The notes under the pieces: generated by a model
Databases searched by the model: none
What the model was told of the DNA's origin: nothing
What the model saw: only the letters and a program-made list of their open reading frames with translations
Made by a program: the position numbers and the translations under genes
Shown here: in pieces, positions 1-50,012 of the stretch
Layout of the letters: the number at the start of each line of letters is the position of its first letter
Position numbering within the stretch: the first letter of the stretch is position 1
Assembly: GCA_036172245.1 (NCBI GenBank)
Contig: JAYWIR010000116.1
Span: 62,001 to 112,012, forward strand
DNA from: Raillietiella orientalis
Taxonomy: Eukaryota
DNA: 50,012 nucleotides
Reading direction: 5' to 3'

Positions 1-750
1 GTGAGGGGGGTTATCAGGGCCCACATTAGCTTATCGCGGGACCGCACGATCTCCTGCAGCTTCCAGCGGGCGTGCCTTCGCAGGCAAGTGTTCCTCGTGC
101 CCGCCGGAAGGTGGATCTTTACCCAGGTAAACAATGCCTCGTGCAACCATGCAGAGTAGTTCCCTGGGAGGCAGGAGATCCAGGCGTTTTCTCGTACCAC
201 AACGTCCATGCTACGCAAGAGAAAGCCCCCCTGGGCTTCTCTGCGGTCGCGCGCCAACAAAAACGACAAAAGTCCGCCGAATCCTCAGGCTTGTTGGACC
301 AAGAGGCGTGCTGGAACGCACCAAGGCGTCTTCCACAAATTGACTGCAAGGGAGAGAGTCCTAAAACTCAGTTGTTTTTCCATGCGCTTTAGCGTAAGAA
401 CGCAAAGTCCACCGTCCTTACGTGCAGTGCACAAGTCTTTGAGCCTCACACGGGACCTCTTTTTGCCCCAAATGACTGTCCTCAGGAGGCCCGCTACTTC
501 TTTTCGAATAAAATAAGGGGCGGGGCAAACAAAAAGTAGGAAACGAAGAAGAAAGGCTGCGAACGCGTTCCACACCGCGGCCCGTTCCAGCAAGTAGAAC
601 TTGCCTTCTTGGAACGGATCGATCGCTAACGCTGCCTTTTGGAGACGGTCGGACCAGGATTCTGCTGCGCAGAAGTCCCCCAACGGTACGCCGAGGTACT
701 TGAAGCACCTGCCCGTGGGGATCCCCAAGTGGATCCAGTGCGATTGTCTC
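1..750 (-). pseudogene. Fragment of LINE ORF2 (end of RT plus post-RT region), running off the window start
   Basis: ORF 285..728(-) reads GIPTGRCFKYLGVPLGDF...ERAAVWNAF...RKDGGL, matching the post-RT segment of the other ORF2 copies; in-frame stops downstream. Confidence 0.9.
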
Positions 751-792
751 CAAAAGGTCCAGTCCAGAGTCGTTCAGCGAGTGGCCGAGCAG

Positions 793-802
793 CGTCCGCC
801 GT
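793..802. repeat. 10-bp target-site duplication CGTCCGCCGT (copies at 793-802, 1141-1150, 2426-2435)
   Basis: Three exact copies, each at a boundary of the two truncated minus-strand elements. Confidence 0.85.
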
Positions 803-1140
803 TTGCCACTCGAATATGCCGGGGCATTTATTATTCTAATTTTCTACAAAAATTAGATGATAAAGTCTTCCAAAAGTTAATTGTGGGAAACACTTGGTTT
901 TCCCACCTTGGTTGACGTGTCTGTTGCCGGTGCATAGACCGGTTAAATCCATTCCCGAGGCACATGGGAAGGAAAAACTAGAACAAAAACAAAAAAAAGA
1001 GAGTTAACGGGGAGGGAAATAGTTGTATGGGGAGAGGGGGGGGGCAGGGAAGGGATCACTGGGCGCCTGGGTCGGTCCTCCGAATCCTGTTAAGGATGCA
1101 GTCAAGTTCTGCTTTAACTGTGAAAGGTAGACGTCACCTG
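803..1140 (-). mobile_element. Severely 5'-truncated LINE copy (last ORF2 codons plus 3'UTR)
   Basis: Near-identical to 1151-1488; ends in the AATAAA-hairpin terminus at 803-832. Confidence 0.85.
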
Positions 1141-1150
1141 CGTCCGCCGT

Positions 1151-2425
1151 TTGCCACCCGGATATGCCGGGGCATTTATTATTCTAATTTTCTACAAAAA
1201 TTAGATAATAAAGTTTTTCAAAAGTTAATTGTGGGAAACACTTGGTTTTCCCACCTTGGTTGACGTGTCGGTTGCCGGTGCATAGACCGGTTAGGTCCAT
1301 TCCCGAGGCGCATGGGAAGGAAAAACCAGAACAAAAACAAAAAAAAGAGAGATAACGGGGAGGGAAACAGTTGTATGGGGAGAGGGGGGGGGCAGGGAAG
1401 GGATCACTGAGCGCCTGGGTCGGTCCTCCGCATCCTGTTCAGGATGCAGTCAAGTTCTGTTTTAACTCTGAAAGGTAGACGCCACCTTGTCGCCGTCTCT
1501 AAAGAGATCGTCGTTTAGTGGATGGCGTCCCTGCATCTTGGGCCTCTTCTTCTGGCGTGCCACCTTGGCACAATGCCGCGCACGCAGCACAGGACTGCTA
1601 GAGACGCGGCGGGGCGCAGGCCGTCACGCAGAAAGAGGCGACGGTAAATTTCCTTAGGGTCGCCTACTGGAAGGTGGAGGATTGGGGCGATTCGACTCCA
1701 GAGTCCATCCAGGGCGACACACTCGAGGGTGAGATGCGGGAAGGTTTCTCTTTCTCCGCACTCGACACAGCGGGCATCCACATTTCCGAGTGTCCAGTGA
1801 GACAGGCGTGCTCTGCTTAACAGTCCCCAGTGCAGAAATAGCAACGCCGTCTCCTGCCACTTCAACGGAAGTGTGCCGCAATCCCAACACGCTGGGGGCC
1901 ACTTCACCTCCTCCGGAGGTATTGCGATCAGCTCTCCCCAGCGCGCAAGTCCGTGAGGCGGGACGCTCGGGGTGGCAGCGTCCGTGAGCTCATGAGTCGT
2001 CCACGCCTTTAAAGGTTTTTTCCTGCCTCGGATGAGTCAGGACACTTCCCACGATGCCAGCTCGTTGCTGCTCCTACTGTTTTTCAGGGAGGACAGGCCG
2101 GGGGCAAGGAAGCTGAAAGAAGCCCACAGAAACTTCCGGGGCGTGTTGATAATCTCCTGCAGCGGCTCTCGAGCGTACGGTCCTCGTCGTAGGCAGTTGT
2201 ATTCCGCCTCGCTCGTTCCGTTGATCTTAGCCCACGCGGAAGCTGACTCCTGAAGCCAGGCAGTGCAGTTCGCGGGGATGCAGGAGATCCAGGTATTCTC
2301 CCTCATCAGGGCGACCATCTGGCGCAAATCGGGACCACAGTTGGAGAGGCTGCGCTGGTAGGCCACGAGGATCGAGGACAATCCTTCGCAGCCGGTCGCT
2401 CTTCTGGCGAGGAGCCGTGCCGGAT
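1151..2425 (-). mobile_element. 5'-truncated LINE copy (ORF2 C-terminus plus 3'UTR)
   Basis: ORF 1515..1907(-) contains CVECGERETFPHLTLEC (C-terminal Cys/His motif); terminus motif at 1151-1180; flanked by the TSD. Confidence 0.9.
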
Positions 2426-2449
2426 CGTCCGCCGTACACCGCGCAGTCA

Positions 2450-3457
2450 AGCGCTACTCGAAGTTCGCGACGGCGAACCCTCTGTGCAAACAGAGGGTGA
2501 GCCGCGCGACGCGCCGGTCGACACCGAGGACGCCGCTTTCGCAAAGGCGGCGGAGGAGCTCGCGGCCACGCTGGCGGAGCGTGAGAACCCTTCACGCAAG
2601 GCCGTGCGAAGGCCGGCTCCCGCGAAAAAGGCCCCCACAGGTGAGTCGGACCTTGGGGCCGGAAGTACATTTTCTTCCTCGAAGGCACCCCCCAGGAAGT
2701 TGGGACGCAAGTCCCAGAAGCCCAGGAGGCGCCTCCCCTCCACCAGCGAGGAGGAGAAGACGGAAGCCGTCGCCAGCGTGGGAAATTCGGAGGAGGAATT
2801 CCCACGCTCGGAAGTTGTCGATTCGGCCACCCCCGTGGAGGAGGGTGAACAGGGGGGTTAAGTCCCCCCTGCAGGCGCCGACCCTGAACATTTCGCCTCC
2901 ATGGAGGAGGGCGATCAGGTAGGCGCGACCCCACCTGTGGGTGACCCGCTCGACGTACAGTTTCCTATGGAGGAGGGGGACCAGGAGCCTTCAGCACCTG
3001 ACCCCAATCCTCCACCTAGCGTACCGCCCCAGCAGGTGGCGGACGCCGCACTGCCATCTTCCCAGGAGTAACACCTGGGCTCGCCAGTCGCCATCGGATT
3101 CGCGCCGCCTGTTGGAATGTCAACGGTCTGCGCGGCGACGGTATCAGGCGAGATACGGCCGACACACTGCGTGAGCTCGACCAGGCCCTGTTGCAGGAGA
3201 TTCACGTGATCAACGCGGCAGACGTCCAGGAGATCGAGACGATCGTGGAGGGTCGGCTGTACTGGCAATGCGGCATCCGCAACACCTGCGGGGTCGCGTT
3301 CATCGTGAAGCCGGCCATCGAGGCTGCCGTGAAGGGCGTGCGCTTCGATTACGACGGTCGGGTCGATCAGCTGACTCTCGGCTGGTCGGACTCCATTGAA
3401 CTGATCGTCACCAATGTGTACGCCCCCAGCGGTAAACAGGGATACAGTGACCGCACC
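2450..3457 (+). pseudogene. LINE fragment: ORF1 tail and start of ORF2 endonuclease (family of element C)
   Basis: DAAFAKAAEELAATLAERENPSRKAVRRP (2484..2861); ORF1 stop TAA at 3069-3071; QEIHV...NVYAP endonuclease motifs (3191..3457). Confidence 0.88.
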
Positions 3458-6323
3458 TTCCTGTTCACGCTCTCTTCTTTCGATCCTCCTGGATCTAGCG
3501 GAGCGTGCAACTTCTGTAACCCCCAAACAGGAACCTTCGTTCCTGTTGGAGCATGACGAACTGTCCCCACGTTCGAACGGTTTCCTGCAACCAGGCACTA
3601 CCGTTCAACGGGCGACAGGTTAGCAATCCTGGTTTTTTCCGATACAGCGCAGCCACCCTCCGTGGCTGGAGTCCGCATCGGTTGACGCGGCGAGGGAGTG
3701 CAAGAAACGACGTCAGTCCCGTCTTGCCGGTAACTTGCTGGAGAAGGAGACGTGCAGGGATGCACCAACAGGTGCACCACAACTCTGGAACGAATGCCGA
3801 CAAGCGGAACTGGAGCTGAAGCTCCAGCCGCTCCAGCGTCAGGAGGCCCAGACCACCATCCCGACGAGGAGGGCGCAAGTCCTTTAAGCGGAATCGGGCC
3901 CTCCCGTTGCCCCAAAGGGCGATACGGAGGAGGTCCTTTGTCCGCTTTTTATTTCTCTCTGTGAAGGGGGCAAACAAATAGCAGGGGGCGGAGGAGAGGA
4001 GCCGCGAACCTGTTCCAAACAGCGGCCCGTTCAGGCAGGAAACACCTGCCGACTCGGAACGGGCCGATCGCCGTCTCTACTTTTTGGAGGCAGCCGGACC
4101 ACGCTTCCGCAGGGGAGTAGTCACCCAACGGCACACCAAGGTACTTGAAGTACCTCACCGTGGGGATCCCCAAACGGACCTAGTCCTGCTGCCCTGCCCA
4201 CGCCGCACGAACTGGTATCGCGGACGATTTCGCCCTGTTCACCGAAAGTCCGGTTCCCCGATGCAGCAGGTCGAAGAACTCCTCGACCGCCACAGCCGGG
4301 GTGGACATAGGGAGCAGCAGAAGAAGGTCGTTCGCGTATGCTGAAACCGCAGGCGTACCGGGACAATCGCACGCCACGTGCGCCAGAGTCTGCCTGTACG
4401 CTCTCAGTACCAACTCAAAGTAGGTACTGAAGAGCAAGGGGTTCAGGCTGTCTCCCTGCCGGATCCCACGCCGCACCGGCACGCCGTGCACGGTCTGCCC
4501 GCAGAAAGTAGCGTTGATGATCGCGTCGGGCCAGCAGGAGCGCGGATAGGCTACTAATGAGGCTGGGAAGCCCAAGCGTTCCAAAAGCTCCAGAAGGAGT
4601 TTCTGGTCGACGCAAACGATTGCTTTCCGCAAGTCGATTGCGACCGCAAGGGCTCCCTCCCCCACCCGACCATCCAACCCCTTGCCGGCGTACGCACCGG
4701 AATTCCGGCAGCGCAACAAGCTCCTTCCATTTTGGTGCTCTATCCAGGTGGAAGCGTGGAACAGGTTCGCCTCCATGCTTCCCCGGAAACAGCATATGTC
4801 TGTTCCGGTCTGATGAAGATGTTCAAAACCCGTCCCAGACGCTCTGCCCAAATCTTTGCTAGCAACTTGGCGTCCGCATTCACTATTGTGATGGGACGTC
4901 AGTTGTTCATGCTCCTCAGATCTCCTCCCTTAGGGAGGAGCTGTACCTTTGCCGAACGACACAAGGCGGGAACGTCACCTGTTTCGCGTATCAGCAAGGT
5001 GAGTTGCTGTACCAGGGGGGTAAGCTCAGCCGTGAAAGTTTGATAAAACTCCACGGGCAGGCCGTCCTCTTCTGGAGTCTTTCGCCTCTTGAGCTCTCCG
5101 ATGGCCGAGAGGATCTCGTCCATCGTGAAAGGCTCGTCGAGGGTCTTTCTCTGCTCCTCCCCGATCGCTGGACAGCGTTCCGGAAGCAGGAGACGTGATA
5201 CGTTCCTCTCCGCAGGTGCCCTGGCATACAGGGAGGAGTAGTAACTCCGCAGCAGGCCGCGGATTTGGGCAGTTGCCGAGTGCTCCAGGCCCTGTTCGTC
5301 CAGTAAGCTGGCCGATCCGGACTGCCAGGCTTGCCTCTCGGCTCCCGCTTTGTACTCTGGCAGCCTGCGGATGTCGGGGGTCCTGGCGCAACGACGGGCC
5401 TGCAGGTAGGCTCGTCCGTTACGGACCCCGGTCCCGAAACCCGTAGGTAGGCGGTGCAGAGGGAACCGGTCGCAGAACTCCTGGACCGACCGCTTGAAGC
5501 GGTCTCAATCCTGGAGTGTCCGCAGCCTGAAGCTCCGTATGAACGTGCGAAGATGTTTTTCTTTCTCGTTTGGGAGCTTCAGTTAGTCCCCTGGGAGACG
5601 TCACGCTGACGAGGGGGGGCCCCTGTTGCGCGGATGGATCTCGAGGACTAGCGGGCGATGGTCGGACAGCTCGCACGGTAACTTGCCGCGCCTGCCCACG
5701 CGAGGGCACGGGTGCTCCTCAGGAAACACGTGGTCAATGCTGTCTTCCATACCCGGTGCACTGGCCAACAAATTACAGGTGTGCACCGCCATGCACACCT
5801 CGTTGACCAGGTCACGCTCGGGATTCTGCTCATCTGGTTTCAGGCGAACGTTGAAATCGCCTGCAACCAGATGGCCATCCCGCACGCCTGCTTCGGTCAG
5901 CCAGTCTCGCCGGAGGGCAAGGAAAAACTCTTTCCTCGCCCTTCTGGTCATCAGGTCCGCGCCGCTCGGTGCGTACACGTTCGTGACGATCAGAGTGATC
6001 GAGTCGGACCACCTGAGAGTCAGCTGGCGGACACGACCGGGATCGTCGAACCGCACGCCCCGAGCCGCGGCCTCGACGGCTGGCCGAAGCTGGTAGGCGA
6101 CACCGCAACTTTTCGCTCTCCCACACCTGTACCATAGCCGCCCTCCGGAGATCCGTTCGATCTTTTGCGCTTGTTCTGCAGAGATCACGTGGATCTCCTG
6201 CAGCAGCGCAAGGTCGTAGGACTCCCGCAGGGCGGCCATGTCTCGTCTCCTGCCGGCGTCTGTCATGCCGTTCACGTTCCAAACGGCGATGCGCAGACGA
6301 CGGCGGAAGGAGATTCTCTACAT
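3458..6323 (-). pseudogene. Element G ORF2 (APE endonuclease plus RT), disrupted
   Basis: LLQEIH, NVYAP, AGDFN, IDH, SDH (5601..6275); GIRQGDSLNPLLF and YAND (mutated YADD) in 4180..4851; several stops and frameshifts. Confidence 0.9.
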
Positions 6324-7948
6324 TACTGCTGGAAGATTAAGGTGTGAGGGAGCCCTCCTCTTGCGAGGCGGACAGGATGTCCATGGGGATTTCGGCCTTC
6401 TCAGGCACCTGAGGCACCTGTACGGACTCTACCCCCTCCATCCCCTCCGTGTCCGCGCTTGGGAGTCTCTCGGGCGACGGGTCCCGAGAGCTTCCCACGC
6501 TCATGGCAACCTCGCTTGCGGAAGCTATCTCTTCCCCTTCGACGGGGGAGACGAGCTTCCTTGGCTTTGTGGACTTACGTCCAGCCTTCTTGCGCGGTGC
6601 CGTGGAAACAGAGGCTGCGCTTCCGGCCTCCACCTCGGGGTCGGAAGTGGGGGACTCCTGAGGGGAGGCCGGACGCCTTACGGCCTTCTTCCCAGCCTTG
6701 GAGGGTTCTGGCTGCAACGACGCTGCCAGCTCCTCCGCGGCTCGCGCGAATGCTACGTCATCGATGGTGGTGTCGATGACGGACGCCGCCGATGGCTCGC
6801 TCCCCTCGCTGTTGAAGGAGACAACAGAGATGTTGTCGTGGGTAGCAGCGAGTTCTTTTTCGCAGCGGTCGGGAATACGCTCGACGACAACGCTGCAATC
6901 TATAATTTGCTCGCTTGCCTGCTGTTTTTTCTGGCGGTACGCGAGCTATTTCTCCATCCACCTCTGCTTCTTTGATTTTTTGGCCGTAGCCACCTGTTAC
7001 CTAGGCTGCTGGCTTGTTCCCTCGACTTGTTTGGCGTTGTTCGTCGGGGTCTCGGGTGAGGCCTGGGCCTTGGGCGGGGGTGGCACAGCCTTCGCGGCAG
7101 CTTTCGCCGCCAGCCTTTTCTGCAGAAGCCGGGCACGTTTTTTGAGGTTTCTCTTAGAAACCACCCGCACTGCTGCTTTGGGGCACACCTCCCTTGTGTG
7201 TCCCATGGTTCCGCATACTTGGCACTGCACATTGGGACACCTCTTTTTGAGGTGTCCCGACGTATTGCAGAGGCCACAGTATTTCGGCTTCGCCACATAC
7301 CAGAGGTCGACGGTTTCGCCTTCGACCACCAGATTGTGGGGAAGAGTGCAGCCCTCCCGAACGATCACGCGCGCAGCAGTGATGCCGTGTTGCAGCCCCG
7401 TGGAGTCCTCGAAAGTACTTACTTTCGTCCACTGCGCGTGGACCGTTCCGAACTGTTCCAAAGCGGCGTCAACCTGTTCCTTGCGCATTCGCGCGGTTAC
7501 GTCTAATAGGTGCACCATGCTGCGGTCCGTTGTAGTGAGGAGGAGTTTGCGCGTTCCCATCACAACGGGGGTTTCATGCAGTCGTTGAGTTAGCTCTGCA
7601 TGTTTGCAGATGACCTCAACGTACTGACCCCCGCTGCGGATGGTCATAGCGCTGAGCTCCTCCTTTTTCACATCCAGAGCGCGCATGCCATTCGAGAAGG
7701 AGCGCGCGCTCTCTAAAGAATATAAATTGCCTACCTTGTAGAACAATGAGGGGTTGTACCCCTCCTCTACATAGGCCGACAATTCCCCCGAGGCTGCAGG
7801 CGATGGCGCCGCTCCACGCTCGCGCTGCAGCGGGACCGATTCTGTGGGGGCGGATGCCCCAACCTCCATCCCCTCTTGGGGCGACGTTGCCGCCACCCCC
7901 TGACTCTCTATCGTTTCTGGGGGTGGCGTTGTTGCTGCCCCTTGGCAT
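6323..7948 (-). pseudogene. Element G ORF1 (gag-like, two CCHC knuckles), disrupted
   Basis: CGLCNTSGHLKKRC and CQVCGTMGHTREVC in ORF 6997..7896; tail continues in broken frames to 6323. Confidence 0.88.
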
Positions 7949-8064
7949 CCCTGGTGGTCGCGTCAGGCATCGCTACCTGATCGACCACCGAACCACACGA
8001 CGCTTGCACTGGGGGAGACTTCCTGGCACGATGAGCACCGAGAAAACACGTCCACCCTGGAGCA

Positions 8065-10176
8065 AACAAAGCATTCGACTCCGTCGACCAGGATCTTCTT
8101 CTGGAGATCATGGAATGCATGGGTTTCCCTGCCGTGCTTCAATCTTACCTGCGCTCCTGCTGGCGCAACGCGTCAATCAATATCGGTTTCAGCGGCCGGC
8201 ACGTGTAAGGCGTGCCAGTGCGCCGCGGCATCCGGCAGGGTGACAGCCTGAGCCCCTTGCTCTTCAGCATCTACTTCGAGTTGGTGCTGAGGGCATACAG
8301 GGTAACTCTGGCAACCCTGCCGAGCTCGTGTGCCGGCACGCCTGCCGTGTCGGCCTATGCAGACGATCTTCTGCTGCTGCTTCCCGGGTCCACCCCGGCG
8401 AGTGCGCTCGAGGACTTCTTCGAGTTACTGCGCCGCGGGACGGGCCTGGAGGTGAACATGGCGAACACGTCCATGGTCTTTGTCGGTTGGGCGTGGGCTG
8501 GAAGGTCGGACTGAATCCGCTTGGGGATTTCCACGGGCAGGTGCTTCAAAAACCTTGGCGTTCCGTTGGGGGACTTCTGCGCAGCAGAAGCCTGGTCCGA
8601 CCGTCTTGAAAAGGCAGCGTTGGCGATCGGTCCGTTCCAAGAAAACAAGTTCTACTTGCAGGAACGGGCCCCGGCGTGGAACGCGTTTGCGGCCCTCCTC
8701 CTTCGCCCCCTACTTTTCGTTTGTTCCGCATCTTATTTTATTCGAAAACGAGCAACGGGCCTTCTGAGGACAGTCCTTTAGGGAAAAGGGAGGTCCCGTG
8801 TGAGGCTCGAAGACCTGTGCGCTCCACGTAAGGACGGTGGACTTGGCGTACTTACGCTAGAGCGCATGGAACTCCAACTACAATTCAGGTCTCTCGTTCT
8901 CGCGGCCGAATTGTGGAACACGCCTTGGTGCGTTCCAGCACGCCTCCTGGCCCAACGAGACTGCGGATTCGGTGGACTTTTGTCGTTTCTGCTGGCGCGC
9001 GACTGCAGAGAAGCACACGGCGGCTTTCTCTTGCGTCGTCTGGACGTTGTGATACGGAAGAATGCCTGGATTCCCTGCCTCCCAGGGAACCACTCGGCAT
9101 GACTGCACGAGTCAGTCTCCTCCTGGGAAAAGACCTACGTATTGGCGGTCACAAGGAGCACTTGCCTGAAAAGGCATGCCCGCTGAGCGCTGCAGGAGAT
9201 CGTGCAGTCTCACGACAAGCTTCTGTGGGCCTTGATAGCCTCCTCTCCCCAGTGCTGCCCTTCCTTGGGAATGCCAGGGACATTAGCGAGCAGGGGAAAT
9301 GGACCGTGTCCTGCACCATATGCGGCAGGACACAATCGATAAAGGCGTGGACATCTCGGCAGCTAGCTAACGCTGCGACGTCGAGTGTCCCGCCCAACAG
9401 AATTGGACGCTGGGGCGAGCTACTCAGAATATCTTCGGAGGAGATGAAGTGGCCTTCAGCGTCCTGGAACAGTGCATCCCTTTCCCTCAAATGGCAGGAG
9501 GTGGCGTTGCTTGTAATGCATTGGGGTTACCCTGTAAAGCACGCCTGTATCACACAACCCGGGGGGCTGTGGTTCCCCAGTGCGACCGGTGCAAGGAAAA
9601 AGAGACCTTCCCTCACCTTCTCATTGTGTGCAGAGCCATCCGCCTTTTATGGGATCGCCTTACGGCGATCCTGGACTTGCGCGGATGCGGCCCCAAGGAC
9701 GTTTTCAGGCGCCTCTTCTGTAGTGACGCCTTGTCCCCACTCGCTTCTGCAGCAATTCTCTGCTGCATTCGAGGGATCGTGGCGGCATGGAACGCCACCA
9801 GAAGAAGACGTCAGCCAACTGGCAGCGCCTTACGATGGACTCGCCTATTCGTGCGAGCTGTATGCAAGTGGCGCTACTTAGGCGCACAGAGGACACAGCT
9901 TGTCCAGATCCTTAATAGGATCCAGAGGACCTCTCCGGGCGCATAGTGATCCCTTGCCTGCCCTCCCATCCCTAAAACTTTTATCCCCTCCCGTGTTTAA
10001 ACTTTTTGTTTCTTTTGTTTTTTCTGTCCCAATTCCCGCGAATCGAAAGGACCTCTCCGTCCTAGCGTCGGCAACCAGCAAGCTGTTTTGGCGTGGTGCG
10101 CCTTCGGGTTCTCCACTGCAAAAATTAATGTATTTTGATTTTTCGAAATAAATGCCCCGGCATATCCGGGTGAAAA
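8065..10176 (+). mobile_element. Element H: 3' half of a LINE (RT motif A to 3' terminus)
   Basis: Starts at KAFDSVDQ; GIRQGDSLSPLLF and YADD (8212..8514); CDRCKEKETFPHLLIVC (9449..9946); AATAAATGCCCCGGCATATCCGGGTGAAAA at 10147-10176. Confidence 0.9.
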
Positions 10177-11521
10177 CGACTGTCGGTGCGGAAAGCGAGG
10201 AGGCGGCGCGAATCGAAGACGCGACCTTCGAGCAGGCCGCGGAAGAGCTGGCAGCCATGTAACGGCAGCCTGTCAAGGCGGTAAAGAAGGCCTTCAGACG
10301 ACCGACAACGGCGAAGGTTCCGGAAAATTCCGAGTCCGAAACCGAAGCCGGATGCTCTTCTTCCGCAGCCGTGCCGAAGAGAAAGGCTGGCAAGAAGACC
10401 GGTTGCCTGAGACGGGTCGCCCCTCCGCAGCTGGGGAGCCCATGTCCTTGGGCACGGAGGAGGAGGCAATGTGCGTCGCACCACGCGACCCTTCTCCCTT
10501 CTGCGTCTCGGAAGCCAGCCCGATGGAAATCGCTGTCCACGACAAGCTCCCGTGTGAGCAGCCGACCGTCGTCACGGTCACCAACGAGCCGCCTCCCGCA
10601 AGGGAGGTGGCCGCCTCCACCCCACAATAAACACACCGATGGGTGGGCTCGAATCATTCCGACGCCTGCGCGTCACCTGTTGGAATGTCAACGGATTGCA
10701 CGACGACGGTAAGAGGCGAGACGTAGCCGCCATACTTCGAGACTTCGACCTGGTGCTCCTGCAAGAGATGCACGTTCTCAAAGCAGAAGAAGTCCAGGAA
10801 ATCGAAAGAATCGCAGGAAGGTGGCTACTGTGGAGGAACGGAAACGACCGCTCCTGCGAAGTTGCCTTTTAGCTTAAGCCAGCCGTCGAAAATACACTGC
10901 GCAGCGTGTGGTTCGACCAGGACGGTCGAGTAGGGCAGCTTGTTTTCAAGTGGTCTGACTCGATCGACTTCATAGTCACGAACCTGTACGCTCCGGTGTG
11001 CAACCACAGGGCCGACGAACGCACTGCGTTCCTCGAATCCCTGCGGCGAGACTGGTTGGCTGAAGCAAGCGTACGACGGGCGCACCTCATTGCGGGCGAC
11101 TTCAATCTCCGCGTGCTGGCAGGTGCGCCGTGCACACGAGCACGACTGGTCAACGAGTTGTGTTCAGCCATCAATGCGCGCAACTTGTTGGCGGGTGATG
11201 CCGGGAGAGATCGGAACATCGATCACATGTTTCACGACAACCCCCTGTGAACGCGGGTGGGCACTCGAGGAACGCTGCCGGCACAGCTGTCCGAACATCC
11301 ACGGCTCGTGCTCGAGATACATCCACGCGACAAGGGCCCTTTAATGAAAACGTGGCGCCTGCCGGGGGACTGGTTGCGCCTCGCAGGAGCGGCGGAACAT
11401 CTGCGCGCATTCCTGTGAGGATTCCATCTTGAGACGCTCGCGGACTAGGACGAAATAAAGTGCTTACTCCGCGAGTTTTGCGACCAGTTTCCCCTGGAAC
11501 GTCTTCCGCCGAGCTTCGGCG
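10177..11521 (+). pseudogene. Element I: LINE fragment (ORF1 tail plus endonuclease), interrupted by J
   Basis: DATFEQAAEELAA motif; WNVNGL...LLQEMH (10639..10872); NLYAP, AGDFN, IDH (10906..11250); ends at FPLERLPPSFG. Confidence 0.88.
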
Positions 11522-38586: not shown

Positions 38587-41500
38587 TCACCGGGTTGGCC
38601 GCTGATGAGGGTGTGTAAACCGGCGGTGTATTGCGGCGAGATTCCTCTTTGTCTCCTCTGTCAAATGAGGCCATCTAGCGGATGCTACCATGTAGAAGGA
38701 TGCTTTGCTGATTACCTCTTGGTGCTGTCCGTTGATTACCAACGCCTGGCGGACGGAAACTATCGCGCGTATGCAACCGATGGTTGCAATCCTTGCGCTT
38801 AGTGAAAGCCCGCTCGGCGTGAAGAATCGTGGCAGCAAGTCTCTTGCGGTGTCCACGGGATGCAATAGTGCTGTTGCCAGCCTACGCCACAGTCCTTGCA
38901 GGACACCGCAGTCCAGAAGTAGGTGCGGAATCGACTCCGTCGATCCGCACCGAACACAGTTCGCAGACGCAAGTCCCCCGGAGTCACGATGCCAACGCTC
39001 GTTGCACTGAAAACCCCAGTGAACGAAAAGCAGCACGGCTTGTTTCCAAGCAAGGGGGAGCAGCGAACTGTCAATACACTGTGGAGGGACTACAAGTTCT
39101 TCTGCCCACCGGAGCAGTCCCTTTGCAGTAACACGAGGAGTGGCGGCGTCCGCCAACTCACTTGTCTTCCAGGTGCCAAGGAGTTTGGTTCTTCCCGCTA
39201 TCGTGCAGGAAACCTCCCACCTCGCCGGTTGGTAACTGTCGTTTCTTGCCCTGAGAGCAGACAGCGCTGCGGCAAGAGGCGTGGCAGCCAGGGTAGAAAA
39301 CTTCACCTCGTCCTGCAGTACTTCTTCCAAGAATCGTGGAAAAAATTGGCGCAGGGGGCGAAGATCTTCAGGGCGTATTCCTTGGAACGCCGCCCAGGAT
39401 TCAACAGACTCCTGCTGCCAAGCTTCAAAGTTCATTGGGCGGCAGGAGATCCAAGAGTGTGCTTCCAGAAGTGCGGTCAACTGCCGCAATGGAAAACCGA
39501 AACCCCGCTTCCTGTATTCAGTGCTCGGCAAAAGCGAGAGAAATCCTCCGCTGCCGGCGCATCTCCGCAGAAGAATGCGAGCTGGCACACACAGGGGGGA
39601 TGTCCATAGCTGGGCACACAGTGCCAGCAGTCGGAACTGAACCTGCAGTCCGATTCGCACTATTGTCAGGATACCCAAACCAGCATCCCGACGCGGAGCT
39701 GACAAATCTTTAAGGCGGATCCTGGATCTCGCCGGACCCCAGAGAGCGTTCCTGAGCAGGCGCTTAGCCCGCTGTTTTGCCGCATAGGGGGGGTCCAAAA
39801 CAAAAAACAGGGGACGGAGGAGGGGGGCCACAAAGGTGTACCAAATAGTCGCCCGTTCCTGCAAGGTAATCTTGCCGTTAAAGAACGGGCTGATGGCCAA
39901 CTCTGCTTTCTGAAGACAGTTCGCCCACGCTTCGGCTGCGCCGAAAGCGCCCAACGGAACGCCAAGGTACTTAAAGTACCCGCCGGTGGGGATCCCCAGG
40001 CGGATCCAGTCGGACTGCCCCTCCCACGACGTACCCACAGCAACGACCACGCTCTTCTCTCTGTTCACGCTCACGCCCGCTCCCCGACGAATCAGGTCGA
40101 AGAAATCCTCCACACTGGACGCCGGGGTGGACATGGGGAGCAGAAGAAGCAGGTCATCAGCGTAGGCGGCCACGGCAGGCGTTCCCGGGCAGGAGCTTGG
40201 CAAGTGAGACAGCGTCAGCCTGTATGCACTTAGCACCAACTCAAAGAAGATGCTAAAGAGCAACGGGCTTAAGCTGTCGCCCTGTCGGATGCCCCTACGA
40301 ACGGGAATACCATACACGCTGCAGCCGCTAAAAGTGATGCAGGTTAGCGCGTGGCGCCAGCACGCGCGCAAATACAGCAGGAGTTGCGCCGGGAACCCAA
40401 GGCGTTCCATAAGCTCCAAAAGCAGCTTCTGGTTTACGCAGTCGAACGCCTTGTGGAGATCGACCGCGACCGCCAAGGCACCTGGCGTTCCCTCCTGCCG
40501 TCGGCGCCTGTTCTTTTTGCCTGCGGCAGTGACTTTCGCAGCAGCCTGACTTCGCTGCGCCACAACTTCCTGCAGCTGCATCCATGTACGCGCGAAAAGG
40601 ATGTTCGCCTCCATGGATCGCCCCGGAACCGCGTAGGTTTGTTCCGGGCTCACCACAGATTCCGCGATTCTTCCTAACCGCGCGATTTACAGCTTGGAAA
40701 ACAACTTGACGTCCGAGTTCACCAAGGTGATCGGACGCCAGCTGCTAAGTTGGCGCAAGTCTCTGTCTTTCGGCAGGAGACGCACCTTCGCTGAGCGGAA
40801 GGAATCAGGGACATTCCCGGATTCACTCATCAGCGTCGCGAGGTTCAGCATCAAGGGAATGAGCTCCACTGCAAAGCACTGATAAAACTCTGCAGGGAGC
40901 CCATCCTCGCCTGGCGCCTTTCGTCTCTTCAGCCCAGCGATGGCGGACGAAAATTCATCCGCCGTGAAGGGCTCGTCGAGACGTTCGCGTTCCTCCTTGC
41001 CGACAACACGAGCATCCTGAGACAGGAGTATCTCAGAAAGAATATCCTCCGTCGGGGATTCCGCGTAGAGCGAGGAGTAGTAGCGTCTCACAATGCTGCG
41101 TACTTCGGCTGGGGCCGAACATTCCCGGCCCCTGTCGTCCAACAGGCATGCTGCTCCGGACTGCCAGACCTGGCGCTCGGCCCTCGCCTTGTACTCTGCG
41201 AGACGCCCGACATCGGCGCGTCTTGAAAACGTGCGGGCCTGCAGAAAGTCTCTACTGTTGGCCACACCCTCTCCGAAACCGCGTGGAAGCCGGTGCAAGG
41301 GGAATTGGCAGCAGAACTCGCGGACAGATCTTTTGAGATCGTCCCAGTCCGCAAGTTCTTAAATGGCAAAGCCTCGGAGGTATCCACGTAGAACCTCCGC
41401 AGCCTCCGGTTGGCAAAGCGAATCCGCCTGCATCCTCCAGTTTTGCAACGGAGGCCCCCTGCCTGGCGGAAAGATCTCAAACTCCAACCTGTGGTGGTCA

Positions 41501-42159
41501 GAAAGCCTAGTCAACAATCTTCCTCTCCTACCCACACGCGAATGCAGGTTTTCATCGAGGAAAACGTGATCGAGCGATCTTTCCATTCCAGGTTCGCTGA
41601 CCATCAAGTTGGCGGCGTGCACGGACGCGCACATCTCGATGGGTAGCGCGCGTTCCCTCGGCCGGCTCCAATCGTCGGAGAGCAGGCGGACGTTGAGGTC
41701 CCCAGCGACGAGGTGCGCCACTTGGAAACCGGAGTTGTTGAGCCAGTGGCTCTGCACCTCACCAAAGAAAGCTACTCTTTCTTCGAGGTAGCGAGAGCCA
41801 CTCGGCGCGTAGACGTTCGTAACGACGAGATCGATGGACTCGGACCACTTGATGACAAGCTGGCCTATCCCTCCGTCGTCATCGAAACGAACACTACGCA
41901 CCGCTTCCGCCATTTTTCCTCTTACGAGGAACGCGACGCCGCACGTGTGTGCGCCGCCGCACCGCCAATGTAGCGTTCCGCCTGCGCGCTCCTCGATTTC
42001 GGCTGCGTGCTCGTCGGAGATTACGTTAATCTCCTGCAGCAGCACGAGGTCGAAGGGGCGCAGGGCGTTGGCTACTAATCGCCTCTTCTCGTCGTTCTGT
42101 AGTCCGTTCACGTTCCAACACGTTACGGACAGACGACGAGAAGACGCGATTCCCCGCAT
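38587..42159 (-). pseudogene. Element E ORF2 (1190 codons, single frame, two premature TAA stops)
   Basis: ORFs 41359..42159, 40687..41298 and 38587..40656 are in one frame; all EN and RT motifs present plus CVRCGSTESIPHLLLDC. Confidence 0.93.
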
Positions 42160-44081
42160 TACTGCTGGGAAGGTGGCGGCTTTTTACTCGCTTTATCCGG
42201 CGAGCAGAAGGCGAGCAGCACGACTGGCTGGAGGGGACGGTCGCCACCGTCTTTTGTCGTGCTGCATGCATGTACTGCCTCCACGTCAGGCTTAACCCTG
42301 TCGGGTTTCGTGAAGATTTCGCGTGACTTCGCGGCAAGCGTTGCCTGGCTGCCTACTATTAATCGGTGCGCACACGCTTTCGAACGAGTTGTCCTCGTCT
42401 CGGTGATCGGAACGGCATCCATTTCGGAGTCCGACCGGCGCATGTTCGATCGAGTTTCGGCCTTCCGCGAAGTAGTGACAGGTTCTGCTGGATTGACAGC
42501 TGTCCTGTTGTCTTTTTCCGTCTCCAGAGCATCGCTTTTGGTGACGGCTGCTTTCCCGGCGCGCGCGTTTTCAGCGTGCTCACGCGCAGTTGCGCGAGGG
42601 ACCTTTGCTGAAGTCTTCTTTACTTCATTACGGTTCCTCACTTCGTGTGGCGCCGTAAATGGAGATTGTGTTCCATTGCCATCTTTGAAGCCGTCCGCGT
42701 CTTTGGACGGGAGCACTTTCGATGGCTCCGACACGCTCGTCATGGATGCTGCCTTCGGAAGGGCTTTTAATCCCTTCGTTGGCATGGCATCCGCGCCAGT
42801 CGAGAGCTTGCTCTCCGACTGCGACGGCGTGAGAGTTTTCTCCGCTTTCCCGGTGTTGGGTCGCGACGCGGATTTTTTTTTGCCGACTTTCGAAGTCGAC
42901 ACGGCACAACCCTTCTTACCCGATTTGGGCTTCTCAGCCACTGCAGGAAGTGAAGGAATGGATCTGACGGTACTGGAAGTCTCCTTACCGTTGTTGTCCA
43001 TTGTCGTCCCCGCCGGTTGCTCGAACTCCGAAAGAGCCGGGCGTGCTTGGGAAGGACACCTATTGCGCCTAGGGGGACTTAGCATTGCCCCGGATTCCCC
43101 GCACCCTTTCTTTTGCGGCTCCCCTGCCGCGAGAAAGGACGCGCAGGGCTTCGCGTGCGAGGTTTCCTGCTGCTTTGGGGCGACATTCCGCCTCGCGTTT
43201 TTTCGGAATTTCTGCCGTGGGGTCTCCAGGTTTTTCGCAGATTTTTTCTTTTTATCCGCGCTTTGTTTTCTAAGATGGAGCTCCGCGGCTGCCTTTTTTC
43301 GCAAAAGATCCGGGCAATTTTTCAATTGGTGCGCGGATAGTTTGCAATAACGGCATTTTCCAGAGGGGCATTTATCCAAACAATGCCCCTCCTTCCCGCA
43401 TTGCTCGCACGTTTTTACTTTGCCCACGAACCACAGGTGAACGACCGTGTCTTTCACCTGTAGTTGGGTGGGCAGCAGACGGCGGTCCGGCATTGTAAGC
43501 CGGACTCCAGCGACTCCGCTGTGTATGGACGGGAAGTCCTTGAGGTTGCTACGCACCCTCCACAGCGCATGGACCGTGGCGAATTTCGCCAACGCGTTCC
43601 GAATATCAGTATCGGAGACTTCCGACTCCATGTCGAAAATCTCCGCCACAAATGAGTCGTCCATGGCGGCCGGGAAGACCTTCTGGCCACGGATCGACAA
43701 CGGGGTGCGCAGCAAGCGTTGCACAAGTGCAGCGTCTTTGCAACGCACCTTGAAATAGCCCATGTCTTTTACGGGCATAATGGCGAGAAGGTCCTCCTCC
43801 CGCACGCCAACACGGGTCAGTTCATCGTTGAACTGATTCCCGTCGCGCGCAGAAAGAAACCCACTCACCTTATATCGGAGAGCAGGTCTATAGCCTTCGG
43901 CTACGTATGCCCGCAACTCCGACTCGTCGAGTGGCTTCCCTTTGACGGCTGCTGTGGCAGCAACGTCAGCAAAACTCCTCTCTTTTGGCGAGAATCACGA
44001 AGTGGAGGCGACCGTCGGTTCCGCGATTGCAGATCCATATGCTGTTCCTCCAACTTGAGTAGCTTCAAGTTGGGTCGACAT
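42159..44081 (-). pseudogene. Element E ORF1 (two CCHC knuckles); 585-aa open frame, likely ATG at 44081 separated by an early stop
   Basis: CEQCGKEGHCLDKC and CRYCKLSAHQLKNC in 42159..43916; the in-frame ATG at 44081 is followed by TGA near 43995. Confidence 0.82.
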
Positions 44082-44159
44082 CGTCGTCAAAATGTACGAC
44101 GCCAAGATGAAGCGGATGAAAGCACGGAGACGAGAGCGAAGAAAAACACGTCCGCACTC

Positions 44160-46596
44160 GATTGAAATCTCCCGCTATCAGGTGAGCCTTTCGCACATTG
44201 GTATTCGCCAGCCCGGTCCGTTTCAGGGTTTTTAGCAGCCTGGTGCGGTCGCGGTACCCCTGTTTGCCGCTGGGGCCATAAACGTTTGTGACGATTAGGT
44301 CGATCGAGTCGGACCATCTGAGAATCAGCTGACCGATCCGACCGTCGTCATCCAACGGCACGCCCTTCACGGCAGCGTCGATGGCCGGCTTTACGAACAA
44401 CGCGACTCCGCGGGTGTTGCGGAGCCCGCATCGCCAATACAACCGACACCCCGCGATTGCCTCGATCTCCTGGGCGTCTGCCGCGGTGATCACGTGGATC
44501 TCCTGCAGCAGCGCCAGGTCGAGCTCACGCAGAGTGTCGGCCGTATCTCGCCTGTTGCCGTCGTCGCGCAGCCCGTTGACGTTCCAACAGGCCGCGCGAA
44601 TCCGACGGCGACTGGCGAGCCCAGGTGTTAGTCCTGGGAAAACGACGATGCGGCGTCCGCCACCTGCTGGGGCGAAACGCTAGGTGGAGGGGGAGGGGGG
44701 ACAGGTACTGAAGACACCTGTTCCTCCTCCTCCATCGGTGTTGGCGCGTCGGCCCGATCACCCGCAGGTGGAGTCGCGCCTACCTGTTCGCCTTCCTCCA
44801 TGGGTTCGGGCTGCTCAGGTTTTGCGACTGCAGAAGGACTTCACTTCCCTGCTCACCCTCTTCCATGAGGGTGGCCGCCTCGACGGCTTCCAGGCGTGGG
44901 TATCCCCCCTTCGGGATTCCCACGCTGCCGTTTCCTTCCGGTTTCTCCTCCTCGCTGGTGGAGGAGAGGCGCCTCCTGGGTTCCTAAGACTTGCGTCCCG
45001 ACTTCCTGGGGGTGCCTCCGAGGAGGAGGATCCGCTTCCGGCCCCCAGCTCGCACTCACCTGCGGGGGCCTTCTTCGTCGGAGCCGAACTGCGTACGCCC
45101 TTGCGCGGCGGGTTTTCGCGCTCGGCGTGCGTTGCTACGTGCTCCTTTGCCGCATTCTCGAAGGCCTCGCCTTCCACAGCGGGGATTGTTGCCGGGGGCT
45201 GTTCCGCGACCTTATCGAGCGCGGAGTCATCGCTGACGGCGAACGTTGCCGCGGGCTCCTACGCGACTTTATCGAGCGCGGCGTCCTGGCTGTCGGCGCG
45301 CGAGTCTCGCGTCTCACCCTCTACACGTAGATTGGGCTCGTCCACGCGAGTATTCATCGCGTCCGCATCAGCTGTTCCGCGAACATTGCCGCGGGCGGAC
45401 TCGGCAGGAACGGCTTAGCGTTCCACTGCCACCGAGCATTCCCGGAGTTGTTTTTTTTTTTGAAAGAGGCGTGGCTTTTTTCTTGTTGCCGGCAGTTTTC
45501 TTCTCCGACTTTTCTTCTGGCATTAATTTCTTTTTTTTTTCTTTTCTGGCCTGAACCAGCTGCCAACCCTTCTCAATTTCCGCGTTCACAAGAGCTCTTT
45601 CCTCCGACGACTGTACGGGAGGAAGGGAGGCTGGCAGTTGGGAACGGCCATTTTCGCGAGCTGGTCTTTCCACCAGCTTTCCACGTTTTCCCTGCGCCTT
45701 TTTGGCGGCAAGGGGCACCGGGGTGGGGCGCTTGGGGCACACCCGCCGAACGTGACCCTTTTCGCCGCATAGGTGGCACACAATGTTCGGGCACCTTTTT
45801 CGTAGATGCCCTACTGCATTGCAGTAGCCACAAAATTGGCGTTTCCTTACGTACCAGAGGTCCACCTCTTCTTGGCAGACCTCCAGCTTGTGGGAAAGCG
45901 CACCACTCTCTTTTAATGTGATATGCGCCGCAGCTTGACCTCCGAAAAGGCTATTGTAGCCTTGGAAAATCGTAGACTTCGGCCACAACGCGTGCACTTC
46001 TGCGTGCTTTTGTAGCTGTTCTCGAACCGCTGACCTAGTCATGCGACTGGAGATCCCAGTGAGATGGACCACCACCGAGCGGTCCATCGTTATCGGCAAG
46101 ATCTTCCGACCATCAACAATCAGCGGGTCGGTGATCAGGTGTCGGGCCAAGGTGATATCCTTCCATACCACCTCGACCCGCTGCCCGCCGCTGAGGACGA
46201 AGAGGCCGTCGCAATCTTTTTGAAAATATTGGCCTTCTGCAGCGCCTTCGTAAAGGCGCGTGCAGTTTGCCCATCGAAAAGGTTGCCTACCTTGTAGCCT
46301 AGCGAGGGTTTATACCCCGCTTTCTTGTAGGCTTCCATCTCGGCCATGGCTTCCACGCTAGGCGCGGCCACCATGGCGCTCCATGAACTCGGAGTCGCCG
46401 GGGACGATTCCAAGACGGATGCCCCTGATCCAGTAGGCTGTGGGGCGAACAAGCCCCCATCACGCCTACTTCCATCGCGGTGTCCTCTGGCAACGCTGCC
46501 ATCGGACACCGACGATGTGCACGCACAAATCACTCAACAAAAAAAAACACTCGCTTCGCCACGCAGGCGGAGCGCAGGAAAAGAACGTCCGCTCTC
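44160..46596 (-). mobile_element. Element D 5' part (5'UTR, disrupted ORF1 44628-46502, first half of endonuclease)
   Basis: 5' motif GAGCGGACGTTCTTTT at 46579-46594; CGYCNAVGHLRKRC and CHLCGEKGHVRRVC in 45368..46171; NVYGP...AGDFN in 44065..44493. Confidence 0.9.
45131..45301. repeat. Three degenerate 57-bp tandem units inside D ORF1
   Basis: Units start GTTGC at 45131, 45188 and 45245; they encode variants of the DAAFxxAAEELAAT helix. Confidence 0.7.
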
Positions 46597-46614
46597 CACA
46601 GAAGGAATTCGGCG

Positions 46615-49600
46615 TTGCCACCCGGGTACGCCCGGGGCGTTTATTTATAAAAAACTCTACAATTGCGGTACCAGGCCCCGCTCACGGCCTTATGCACGGG
46701 ACCTACCGGGAGGCCGGGACGCAGCCCGGCGTGGCACTCCCCGGCAGCGAAAGGGGATGGGGAAAAACAAAAATAAAAACAAAAAGGCAAACAAACAAGT
46801 GAGGTTGGGGGGCAGGCATGGGATCACTGTTCGCAGAGAGGAGGGCCCATCCGTTGAAGGAAGCCCTTGAGGTCCATCCGTATATTCCCCAGTTGGGGCC
46901 ATCCAGCAGCTCTCCGCAAGAAGCGTTGGGCATATGGGATTACATCCCTCGCGTGTTGACCCACTCCTTCCTTATTTGTGTCGCTCCATGCCGCCACGAT
47001 GCCTCGGACGCAGCACAAGGCTGCAAGGGCTGCGGCTAGCTGCAGGGCGTCCTTCACGAAGAAGGGCCGAAGTACGTTTCTAAAGGAACTGCCCGTAGGG
47101 AGATGGAGGATCGTCTTAACCGTTCCCAAAGGGGACGAAGGGAAGCACAGTCCACAATAAGGTGGGAGAGCGATTCCCGCTCTTCGCACCTGACACACCC
47201 AGGATCCACAACTCCTCTTGTCCAGTGAGAGCGGCGTGCGTTGCAGGGTAAACGCCAATGCAACAACAGCAACGCCGACTCTTTCCACTTAAGGGGCAGG
47301 ATCCTGGATTCCTGAAGAAGCGGGGGCCACTTCAGCACATCCATAGGGATGGCCAGCAGCTCGCCCCATCTTCTTAGTCCTCGCGGCTGGACGCTCGGGG
47401 TCGTCACGTCGGCCAGTTCTCCTGTTGTCCAGACGCTGATCAACTTCTCGCGTCCCTCGATGCAGCAGGAGACTTGCCACCTTGGCGTCCGGCTGCTGTG
47501 AAGTGCCCTCCTTAGGAAGGGCAGCGCCGTAGCTAGGCAGGCGTCTCTGCCCACGTGCATCTTGCTGGAATCTCCAGGAGATTCCGCAGCGTGCAGCGGG
47601 CGTGAAGGCTGCATCGGAGACGATTCCACGTCTCGTGGCTTCTCTGGTTAACTAATGCCCACGTTTCAATATTCTCCTCCAGCCAGTCGGGGTAGCTGGC
47701 GGGGCAGCAAACCATCCAGCTGTACTCCTTGGCCAATGTTGCCATCCGCCCGAGCAGTAGGCCGCATCTTCGCATCTTCCGGACACGGCTGAGGAGAAAA
47801 GACGCCAGTCCATCGCACCGGGACATACGGCTGGCCAGGAGGCGGGCTGGAGTGCACCATGGGGTGCACCACATGTTCGCTGCGATGGCGACGGTTCGCC
47901 ACCGCAGCTGCTTCTCCACGCGCTCCAGCGTCAGGAGGCCAAGACCGCCTTCCCGACGCGGAGCGCACAAGTCCTTCAGTGGGACTCGGGGCCTCCCCTT
48001 GCCCCAAAGGGCGATACGGAGGAGGTCCTTCGTCCTCTTCTTAGATTCCACGGTGGGAAGGCAAACAAAAAGCAAGGGGCGGAGGACGGGGGCCGCGAAG
48101 GCGTTCCAAACCGCAGCCCGTTCCCGCAAGTGAAACTTGCCTTCCAGGAACGGGCAGATCGCCGTCTCGACTTTTTGGAGGCAGCTCGACCACGCTTCCT
48201 CAGGGGACTAGTCCCCCAACGGCACACCAAAGTACTTGAAGCACCTCGCCGTGGGCATCCTCAGACGGACCCAGTCCTGCTGCCCTGCCCACGCCGCACC
48301 TATTGGCACAACCGACGACTACGCCCTGTTAACCTGCAGTCCGGTCCCGCGGTTGAGCAGATCGAAGAAGTCTCCTACCGCCTTTGCCGGGGTGGACATT
48401 GGCAACAAAAGCAGAAGATCGTCGACGTACGCTGCTACGGCGGGCGTGCCGGGGCACGAGCTCGGCAATGGGGCCAAAGTCACCCTGTACGCTCCTAGCA
48501 CCAACTCAAAGTAGGTGCTGAAGAGCAGGGGGCTGAGGCTCTCTCCCTGCTTTATGCTCCGTCGCACCGGCACCTTATACACCTTTTGACCGCTGAAAGA
48601 GACGGTAATTATTGCATTCCACCAGCAAGAGCGCAGGTTGGAAATCATGGAGGGTGGAAAGCCCATGCGACCCAGGAGCTCCAAGAGAAGTTCCTGCTCT
48701 ACACAGTCGAACGCCTTGTGGAGATCGACTGCGAGCGCAAGGGCCCCCTACCCCGCCCGGGGTTCCCTTCCCAGCCAGCCTGGCGGCCCCAATGTGGAGT
48801 TGCCGACTTTCCTAATCCCTTTCTTTTCTCTTCTCTGCAGGTGCACCTTTGTGCTTGCGAACAAGAGGTTGGCATCCATACTTCGCCCGGGAACAGCCTA
48901 AGTCTGCTCCGGGCTAAATACGGATTCTGCCACCTGCCCCAGACGTGAAGCCCATAGCCCTGCGATCAACTTGGCGTCCCTATTCACGATCGTGATCGGA
49001 CGCCAGTTATTTAAATCCCTGAGGTCTCCCCCTTTCGGAAGGAGCCTCACTCTGGCTGACCGAAACGAGGCGGGAACATCGCCTTCGTCTCAGATCAGCC
49101 TTGTCAGCTGAAGCAGCAGGGGTGCCAGCTCTTCCGCGAAGCTCTGAAAGAACTCCGCGGGCAAGCCGTCTCCCCCTGGAGCTTTACGCCTCTTGAGCCT
49201 TTTGATACCGGCGAGAATTTCGCCGGTGGCAAAAAGCTCGTCGAGGCTTTCGATCTCCTCCGCCCCTATTGCCGGGGCGCCATCCGGAAGCAAGCGTCGA
49301 GAGGCGTCTCGATCCGGGGGCTCCCTGGCGTAAAGGGAGGAATAGAAACTGCGCACGAGATGCCGTACCGACGCCGCGGACGAACACTCCCGGCCCTGGT
49401 CGTCCAGCAAGCTGGCCGACCCGGATTGCCAAGCTTGGCGTTCGGCCCCGGCGCGGTACTCGGCCAGGCGACGGACATTAGGGGTTCTTTCGTACCTACG
49501 AGCCTGTAAATAGGCCCGATGGTTGTGAGCACCCTTGTCGAATCCGGGGGGCAGGCGATCCAGTGGGAACTTCTCACAGAACTCGCGGACCGATTCCTTA

Positions 49601-50012
49601 AAAAGGTCTCAGTCCTGTAGATTCCGGAGCGTGTCGCCTCTCAGGTATTCGCGAAGGTATTCCTTCGCACCTGAAAGTCGCGTGCAGTCCCCCGGCATAC
49701 GCCAATCCCTGGATGGCGGTCCCTTGTCACTTGGCCGCATCTCGAAAATTAACCGGGAATGGTCCGAAAACGTCGACACAACCCTCCCCCGTTTCCCGAC
49801 CCGTGAACACAGGTCAGCGTCGAGGAAGACGTGGTCGCTGCTGCGGACCATTCCCCTGTCACCCGCGAACAAGTTGCGCGCACGCATGGCGGCGCACAAC
49901 TCGTTCATCGCGTTCTCTTGTCTTTCCAACTCACCTGTTAGCAGACGGAGATTGAAATCTCCCGCTATCAGGTGAGCCTTCCGCACGTTCGTGCCCGCCA
50001 GCCAGTCGCTCT
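46615..50012 (-). mobile_element. Element F: LINE 3' portion (3'UTR and disrupted ORF2 back to the endonuclease), running off the window end
   Basis: Terminus motif at 46615-46645; AGDFN/SDH, KAPGGDG, DLHKAFD, YVDD, CVRCEERESLSHLIVDC. Confidence 0.92.

Follow-up and report, generated by a model that had tools for sequence, protein, structure and literature searches.

The known targets of target-specific long interspersed nuclear elements (LINEs) are microsatellites, telomere repeats, a DNA transposon, and genes for ribosomal, small nuclear or transfer RNA; the elements SART/TRAS and HeT-A/TART are telomere-associated LINEs. Transposons are among the known targets of sequence-specific LINEs (PMC4640811), Tx1L being directed to the DNA transposon Tx1D (PMC4494074); Zepp and ZeppL are confined to a single cluster on each chromosome (PMC8226300; PMC3446292), and ZeppL is bound by CENH3 in Chlamydomonas (bioRxiv 10.1101/2025.03.28.645958). 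The stretch of DNA analyzed here (the window, 50,012 nucleotides) forms the last 50 kb of the 112,012-bp contig JAYWIR010000116.1 (C116; other contigs are referred to accordingly) of the Raillietiella orientalis assembly GCA_036172245.1 (210.5 Mb, 491 contigs) and thus extends to its terminus. The genome holds many such nests, which probably stem from a species-wide radiation of L1-group LINEs, Tx1-like in their behavior, in which no fewer than six families or family groups each insert at one fixed nucleotide within conserved coding motifs of their sister LINEs.

Almost throughout, the window consists of L1-group non-long-terminal-repeat retrotransposon DNA. As much as 99.0% of it has matches in LINE copies located elsewhere in this genome, which confirms the original prediction that nearly every base is LINE-derived. 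Searches by tblastn with natural copies of open reading frames 1 and 2 (ORF1 and ORF2) as queries gave a coding coverage of 90%, with all gaps being at most 680 bp long and located in untranslated regions or spacers; an Rfam search of the window yielded no match. ORF2 contains an N-terminal apurinic/apyrimidinic endonuclease-like (APE) domain (Pfam PF03372) and a reverse transcriptase (RT) domain (PF00078). Its best match among the solved structures in the PDB is human L1 ORF2p (E 4e-44, vs. 5e-14 for R2), with which the catalytic motifs of the endonuclease also align. ORF1 carries zf-CCHC knuckles (Pfam) and is similar to ZCCHC3-like RNA-binding plus CCHC clusters (0.93–0.94 by features, a lead obtained without alignment); the text of PMC9004415 makes no mention of ZCCHC3. 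Between families, complete ORF2 proteins show 52–86% identity. The description as a pure LINE cluster is correct for the window but not for C116 as a whole, since the remainder of this contig also carries AT-rich LINE segments.

The families share characteristic ends. In all of them the 3′ end is composed of AATAAA, a CCCGG-loop-CCGGG motif and a final four bases, the last two of which are AA, while full-length copies start near GYGGACGTKTYTT. The poly(A) tail typical of L1 is absent, the ends being fixed as ...GGGTK-NNAA, and an A-run after the 3′ end was present in two of 32 FAM6-type ends. The strict form of the 3′ motif occurs in 1,380 exact copies genome-wide, its reversed control in none. 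That the two N positions are random was considered and rejected, as they are largely fixed within families (TCAA in 44 of 45 family A ends), although they still vary inside some of them. Each insertion shows a precise, tail-less 3′ end and a target-site duplication, the variable length of which (9–17 bp) is, like the 5′ truncation observed, a feature of the L1 group.

Mapping of 122 3′ ends from genomic DNA onto a reference ORF2 revealed family-specific insertion sites at amino acids (aa) 55, 156, 270, 296, 569, and 1049, together with one site in ORF1; for two further sites, at aa 63 and aa 487, only small samples were available (3/8 and 3/3, respectively). Genome-wide tallies of these targets were made by eye from lists of pattern matches. 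Of the 45 3′ ends of family A, 44 are located at aa 270 in antisense orientation, eight of them in tandem behind the duplication. Family G was found at the KAFD motif of the RT in 80 of the 106 matches listed (108 in total), with many distinct host sequences. Among the matches listed, 63 of 80 K-type ends lie at aa 55, about ten of the misses being other families with the same motif, and 70 of 84 F-type ends lie at aa 156 in sense orientation. The 100 matches listed, of 147, to the GCGTAC-loop families comprised 55 ends at aa 296 and 27 at the single ORF1 site (sense). The listings of the latter families and of F-type ends left out all ends whose 25th flanking base is A. For FAM6, approximately 15 of 32 ends are at aa 1049. 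A rule by which insertion would always be antisense had to be rejected, as the aa-156 and ORF1 sites are sense. These counts sharpen the original idea of LINEs targeting LINEs, as the codon at which a family lands in its sister families is always the same for that family. At C7:175821, C11:3049847, C26:1464100, and C84:99243, G is located at KAFD-type motifs with flanks unlike the families of the window, perhaps belonging to more distant LINEs.

The independence of such insertions was checked for family A in 25 copies (20 of a 36-copy listing and five others). These inserts are 91–98% alike, with one gapped copy (L126) at 82–86%, while the 22 on-target host flanks represent many families and are only 54–96% alike. 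Young inserts thus occupy one base in old, divergent hosts and cannot be explained by duplication of a single junction.

Targeting is mostly cross-family. Families A, K, and F have non-matching sequence at their own target position, and none of the flanks listed for them was of their own type, so that the term self-targeting used originally is mostly inappropriate; D and J are able to hit their own type. Tandems are formed by all families. Within family A, a T/G polymorphism (Leu/Met) at aa ~1049 of ORF2 (window ~19400–19420) tracks the absence or presence of FAM6: at this site, copies with ATCAG were filled in 0 of 12 cases, those with AGCAG in 8 of 16 (p = 0.008; four loci fetched twice were removed and variant sites were added by hand). 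As a lead, ATCAG may represent an escape from FAM6, but this is confounded with age, because the ATCAG form may simply be younger. A more far-reaching reading, which we put forward tentatively and do not yet prefer, is that of a closed guild of mutually parasitic LINEs. The endonuclease evolved by each family would cut a conserved coding motif of the competitors but not the divergent version in its own copies (A, K, F), and a change of this site would allow young subfamilies to escape. As by-products, repeat domains, among them subtelomeres, would assemble by themselves, and APE endonucleases would arise that form a natural collection of distinct 10–12 bp specificities.

The nests are probably built by endonuclease-driven targeting across families. 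In 512 kb of nests containing 398 matches to the short motif of G and 36 empty KAFD sites, eight of nine G-type insertions are at KAFD, compared to about 11% expected (p about 2e-7), which means that a preference for nests or selection alone fails as an explanation. Off-target G insertions were examined at 21 sites, with the 5′ duplication being resolvable at 18. At these, position −4 is occupied by G in 15 of 18 cases (p = 2e-6), and G or C was present at −1 in 17 of 18, both as at the on-target site. As the two positions lie outside the duplication, a read-through RNA tail cannot supply them; their conservation points to recognition by the endonuclease in the style of the Tx1 clade. D and J, which have a common target, are 66–72% alike in their C-terminal parts and 84–93% alike in the N-terminal halves of the endonuclease; FAM7, which has a different target, is 70–75% alike in that region. 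The loop preceding the catalytic SDH motif differs between the families. In the literature, this loop is described to affect the specificity of the L1 and Tx1L endonucleases (PMC1950540), and the target of Tx1L to be set by its endonuclease (PMC1950540; PMC4494074).

According to the mechanism we propose, the APE endonuclease of each family would read a site of approximately 10–12 bp spanning the nick. Perfect matches would mainly occur in sister LINEs, every new full-length copy would provide several fresh targets for others, and nest growth would therefore be autocatalytic. Since the duplication regenerates the target, tandem copies form. Near-matches in the arms would give rise to short dispersed copies, and recombination among copies would later delete and shuffle layers. 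The pay-off for an element may consist of a harmless landing pad and the inactivation of a competitor, and no chromosome function would be required. Several observations weigh against this reading. FAM6 is on target in only about half of its cases, many 3′ ends in the arms belong to other families with short preferences only, and among the 122 mapped ends, many of the arm copies were singleton families. Duplicated nest segments inflate some of the target counts. The off-target motif comprises approximately 7 bp, which is shorter than the 10–12 bp needed, the remainder being inferred, and the 3′ motif co-varies with the endonuclease type, which leaves room for a contribution of the RNA. In addition, the 3′ hairpin is no more stable than shuffled sequences (z −0.2 to −1.05), so that its structural role is presumed rather than shown.

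Targeting might alternatively be guided by RNA, with tail-less read-through or pairing with a sister LINE picking the site and the preference being inherited via the flank instead of the enzyme. Such a scenario would fit the lack of a poly(A) tail and the finding that each family has its own characteristic bases directly after the 3′ end, also at off-target sites (TCGA in most of those of G). Moreover, co-transcription with the target can strengthen targeting (PMC4494074), and 8 of the 10–11 fixed sites are antisense. However, this antisense excess is not significant (p 0.11–0.23), two well-sampled sites being sense, and the conserved G at −4 would be impossible in a read-through tail. The A site has a fixed position but differs in its two initial bases (TG, GC, TC, TA), and the 5′ duplication copy of FAM6 begins with AG as the 3′ copy does in 7/7 junctions seen, all of which renders guidance by RNA unlikely. 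Segmental duplication or mis-assembly of a few ancestral insertions could also mimic targeting. Indeed, the end of C11 is 99.8% identical over 4.4 kb to the C13 nest at 2.46 Mb (2.460–2.464), identical flanks occur at C1:5.68/5.76 Mb and at C4:1.17/1.23 Mb, and element E of the window is recombinant. Nevertheless, this explanation is largely refuted by the young inserts at the same base in much older, divergent host families, and full-length copies bear clean duplications. A short-read contig of run X1 moreover joins 21986 to 27948 and so represents the empty form across K, which is no independent evidence because X1 may be the source sample. Taken together, we regard duplication as extremely improbable. 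Selection or purging probably contributes to the clustering, and the 5′ truncation of all 21 off-target G copies (0.3–1.9 kb) fits a purge of long copies from the arms. That random insertion followed by selection, or a trap resembling a PIWI-interacting RNA (piRNA) cluster, gathers the LINEs in gene-free islands is still highly improbable, since the recurrence at a single nucleotide, as seen for the eight G-type insertions at KAFD, would stay unexplained.

The original prediction favored a Zepp-like chromatin targeting, in which a guild of LINEs is drawn to a centromere and builds it. In support of this, the window is a gene-free nested domain with a density of the strict 3′ motif of 100/Mb, compared to 6.6/Mb genome-wide and 4.8/Mb on C1. 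Among the contig termini checked, 6 of 10 large-contig starts and 4 of 5 ends stop in nests. Of the 503 KAFD sites that are empty, 407 belong to C26 or to contigs of smaller size. However, the host is an arthropod and not a green alga, so that the analogy to the algal Zepp lacks a taxonomic basis: its histone H2B is of what we take to be the arthropod type, its telomere repeat is TTAGG, telomerase is present, and its Hsp70 is that of an animal, with arthropods among the best named matches (88–90%) but without one class standing out. A search of the genome for the odorant-receptor family found nothing. Furthermore, two to four separate nests are present on single contigs (three on C5, four sampled on C26, and two each on C13 and C1; Table 1), one of them reaching to within approximately 3 kb of a telomere. 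It is in the nests that long copies accumulate; copies in the arms are mostly in non-LINE flanks and, as on C1, where 58 3′ ends are spread over the whole contig, widely dispersed. One cluster per chromosome was thus not what the genome-wide mapping revealed, even if some joins at nests may be wrong, given the identity of the C11 end to an internal part of a C13 nest. The latter stretch (L163 / L156) may itself be redundant in the assembly, result from a mis-join or reflect a nest segment that was duplicated very recently. As chromatin does not explain codon-exact targeting either, we consider the centromere reading very unlikely, and nothing shows that the window is a centromere. Neither CpG depletion (observed/expected 0.99) nor a CpG-decay signature of methylation was seen, nor was there CpG hypermutation among family A copies (0.019 vs. 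0.016).

The telomere of the host is (TTAGG)n and is assembled at the end of C13. The TTAGG pattern gave 173 matches, of which, among the 100 listed, one is on C11 and 99 are at the C13 end; the plant/algal telomere pattern gave no match and the vertebrate-type one a single match. The telomerase reverse transcriptase is encoded by one AT-rich open frame of 729 aa (L074:688-2877, minus strand), for which the database search gave one distant match. On C116, no perfect telomere array was found, but two degenerate TTAGG-like tracts (200–300 bp) are located to the left of the window, at distances of 30 kb and 6 kb (L009:1772-2074; L011:5474-5667), each ending an AT-rich LINE copy. This AT-rich subfamily is of the same lineage but has a different C-terminal domain, and a relative with ~30% aa identity in that domain is located just before the C13 telomere (L102:5900-8200), its 3′ end facing the telomere. 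The subfamily is therefore possibly telomere-associated, and the combination of degenerate tracts and AT-rich LINEs makes a subtelomeric origin of C116 plausible. For the main families, no TTAGG was seen after the 3′ ends among the matches listed. The assignment to subtelomeres made previously is hence appropriate for the distal C13 nest and hinted at for C116, but does not cover the nests at internal positions. Another L1-type LINE family of lower GC content recurs in contig-end nests (L011:5814-7931, C1 start, C18 end, and C44 end).

Within the window, the proposed five-level nesting is present as I > B > A/A′ > K, D, E > F (Table 1). The original prediction gave no coordinates; its elements J, B, C, D, and E presumably correspond to B, K, D, E, and F here. 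As it had stated, hosts resume colinearly, which is seen beyond the inserts K, D, and F. For the outer hosts I, B, and A′, in contrast, the window contains no closing part, and a second nesting chain, consisting of I, I2, and G, is found at its left. Element E (34938–46600) combines an endonuclease 81–89% alike to J copies (67% to FAM7) with an RT and a C-terminal part that are 81–87% and 79–93% alike to FAM7, respectively, and its two ends sit in two different target types. Judged from these similarities, E is a J/FAM7 recombinant with J-type endonuclease and 5′ end and FAM7-type RT and 3′ end, and we read the underlying crossover as having removed intervening layers. At 3470–3566, an endonuclease fragment on the plus strand is abruptly joined to the 3′-deleted G copy, probably as the result of a deletion.

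Table 1. LINE elements of the window (window positions, unless a contig is named) and nests sampled on other contigs.
Feature	Position	Strand	Remarks
ORF2 fragment (aa ~711-961), I2-type LINE	1..753	-	83% to 8506-9243; tblastn
LINE M, 5′-truncated	792..2437	-	Antisense in sister ORF1; duplication ACGGCGGACG
Second tandem 348-bp 3′ end of M	792-1139 / 1140-1487	-
D/J-type LINE piece	2438..3470	+	ORF1 end and endonuclease aa 2-137; host of M
Family G copy	3456..8066	-	Intact 5′ end (motif GTGGACGTGTTTT), ORF1 and ORF2 aa 4-957; 3′ part lost; inserted at KAFD motif of I2
LINE I2	8068..10176	+	ORF2 aa 566-1189, 3′ end; contains G; lies in ORF1 of I in sense orientation
LINE I (level 1)	10177..11521	+	ORF1 end and ORF2 up to aa-296 site
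J-type LINE B (level 2)	11522..14535	-	3′ end at 11522, ORF2 down to aa-270 site; 90% to J
Family A, full-length (level 3)	14536..20069	+	ORF1 14612-16276, ORF2 from 16276 (frameshifted near 18630); flanked by 17-bp duplication (14519-14535, 20070-20086)
A′, tandem family A copy, first piece	20087..21989	+	5′ end, ORF1, endonuclease to aa 55; 94% to A
Family K, full-length (level 4)	21990..27940	-	At aa-55 site of A′; duplication ~11 bp
A′ resumes (aa ~55-296)	27941..28688	+	93% to A
Family D, full-length (level 4)	28689..34354	-	At aa-296 site of A′; duplication ~11 bp
A′ resumes (aa 294-487)	34355..34937	+	92% to A
Element E, 3′ part (level 4)	34938..38274	-	3′ end at aa-487 site of A′; ORF2 as far as aa 156
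Family F, full-length (level 5)	38275..44160	-	At aa-156 (GDFNL) site of E, sense; 9-bp duplication
Element E, 5′ part	44161..46600	-	J-type endonuclease, ORF1, 5′ end
Family J copy	46615..50012	-	3′ end, then aa-296-type duplication; runs off contig end
Shared 3′-terminal motif (example)	20040..20069	+	AATAAA-YGYCCCGG-loop-CCGGGTK-NNAA, no poly(A) tail
C5 nests	2.42-2.49 Mb, 3.51 Mb, contig end		
C13 nests	2.46-2.50 Mb, 4.37-4.48 Mb		
C1 nests	Contig start, 8.02-8.08 Mb		
C26 nests			Four sampled stretches

A network of sister families aimed at one another's conserved codons would constitute a new target class as well as a direct case of transposon-against-transposon conflict. Literature searches, in which subscription papers were only partly covered, yielded no description of LINEs that are directed to the coding motifs of sister families. 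Closely related endonucleases (50–93% alike) with different targets would furthermore make changes in APE specificity testable by domain swaps. Nested LINE islands can also assemble without any role in the centromere and should therefore not be called centromeres by analogy to Zepp.

Relatives of the lineage in other data are scarce. One JGI protein (P0001) is 75% identical to the ORF2 of family A and groups with the lineage in the RT tree, a metagenome pattern scan gave no match, and a protein scan yielded only 21 distant relatives with 21–32% identity. In the RT tree, which included no named Tx1 sequence, the copies of this genome and one unnamed relative form a long-branch clade. Human LINE-1 resembles the elements described here in ORF2, for which it is the best solved-structure match, and in the endonuclease motifs mentioned above, but differs from them with regard to the poly(A) tail, the precise 3′ end and the strong site specificity found here, as well as to ORF1, which by its features is of an RNA-binding-domain plus CCHC type in the present families. 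SART/TRAS and HeT-A/TART are comparable in that a LINE array is located beside the telomere of C13 and in that the AT-rich subfamily ends in TTAGG-like tracts. In contrast to these elements, the main families have coding regions of LINEs and not TTAGG as their insertion target, telomerase is present in the host and nests also occur internally.

Zepp of Coccomyxa C-169 and ZeppL of Chlamydomonas are likewise described as L1-type LINEs that are nested in existing copies, form tandem arrays and reside in GC-rich, gene-free clusters, some of which are subtelomeric (PMC8226300; PMC3446292). They are, however, green-algal and described as targeting their own copies, whereas the families analyzed here reside in an arthropod, have mostly cross-family targets and form several nests per contig in addition to short dispersed copies. 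With the Tx1 clade (Xenopus Tx1L in Tx1D; Keno, Kibi, and Koshi), they have in common an animal host, the combination of an APE endonuclease with an L1-group RT and a fixed multicopy target. What distinguishes them from this clade is that the targets are ORF1 and ORF2 codons of sister LINEs and that six or more families or groups are connected in a mutual network, every one having a site of its own.

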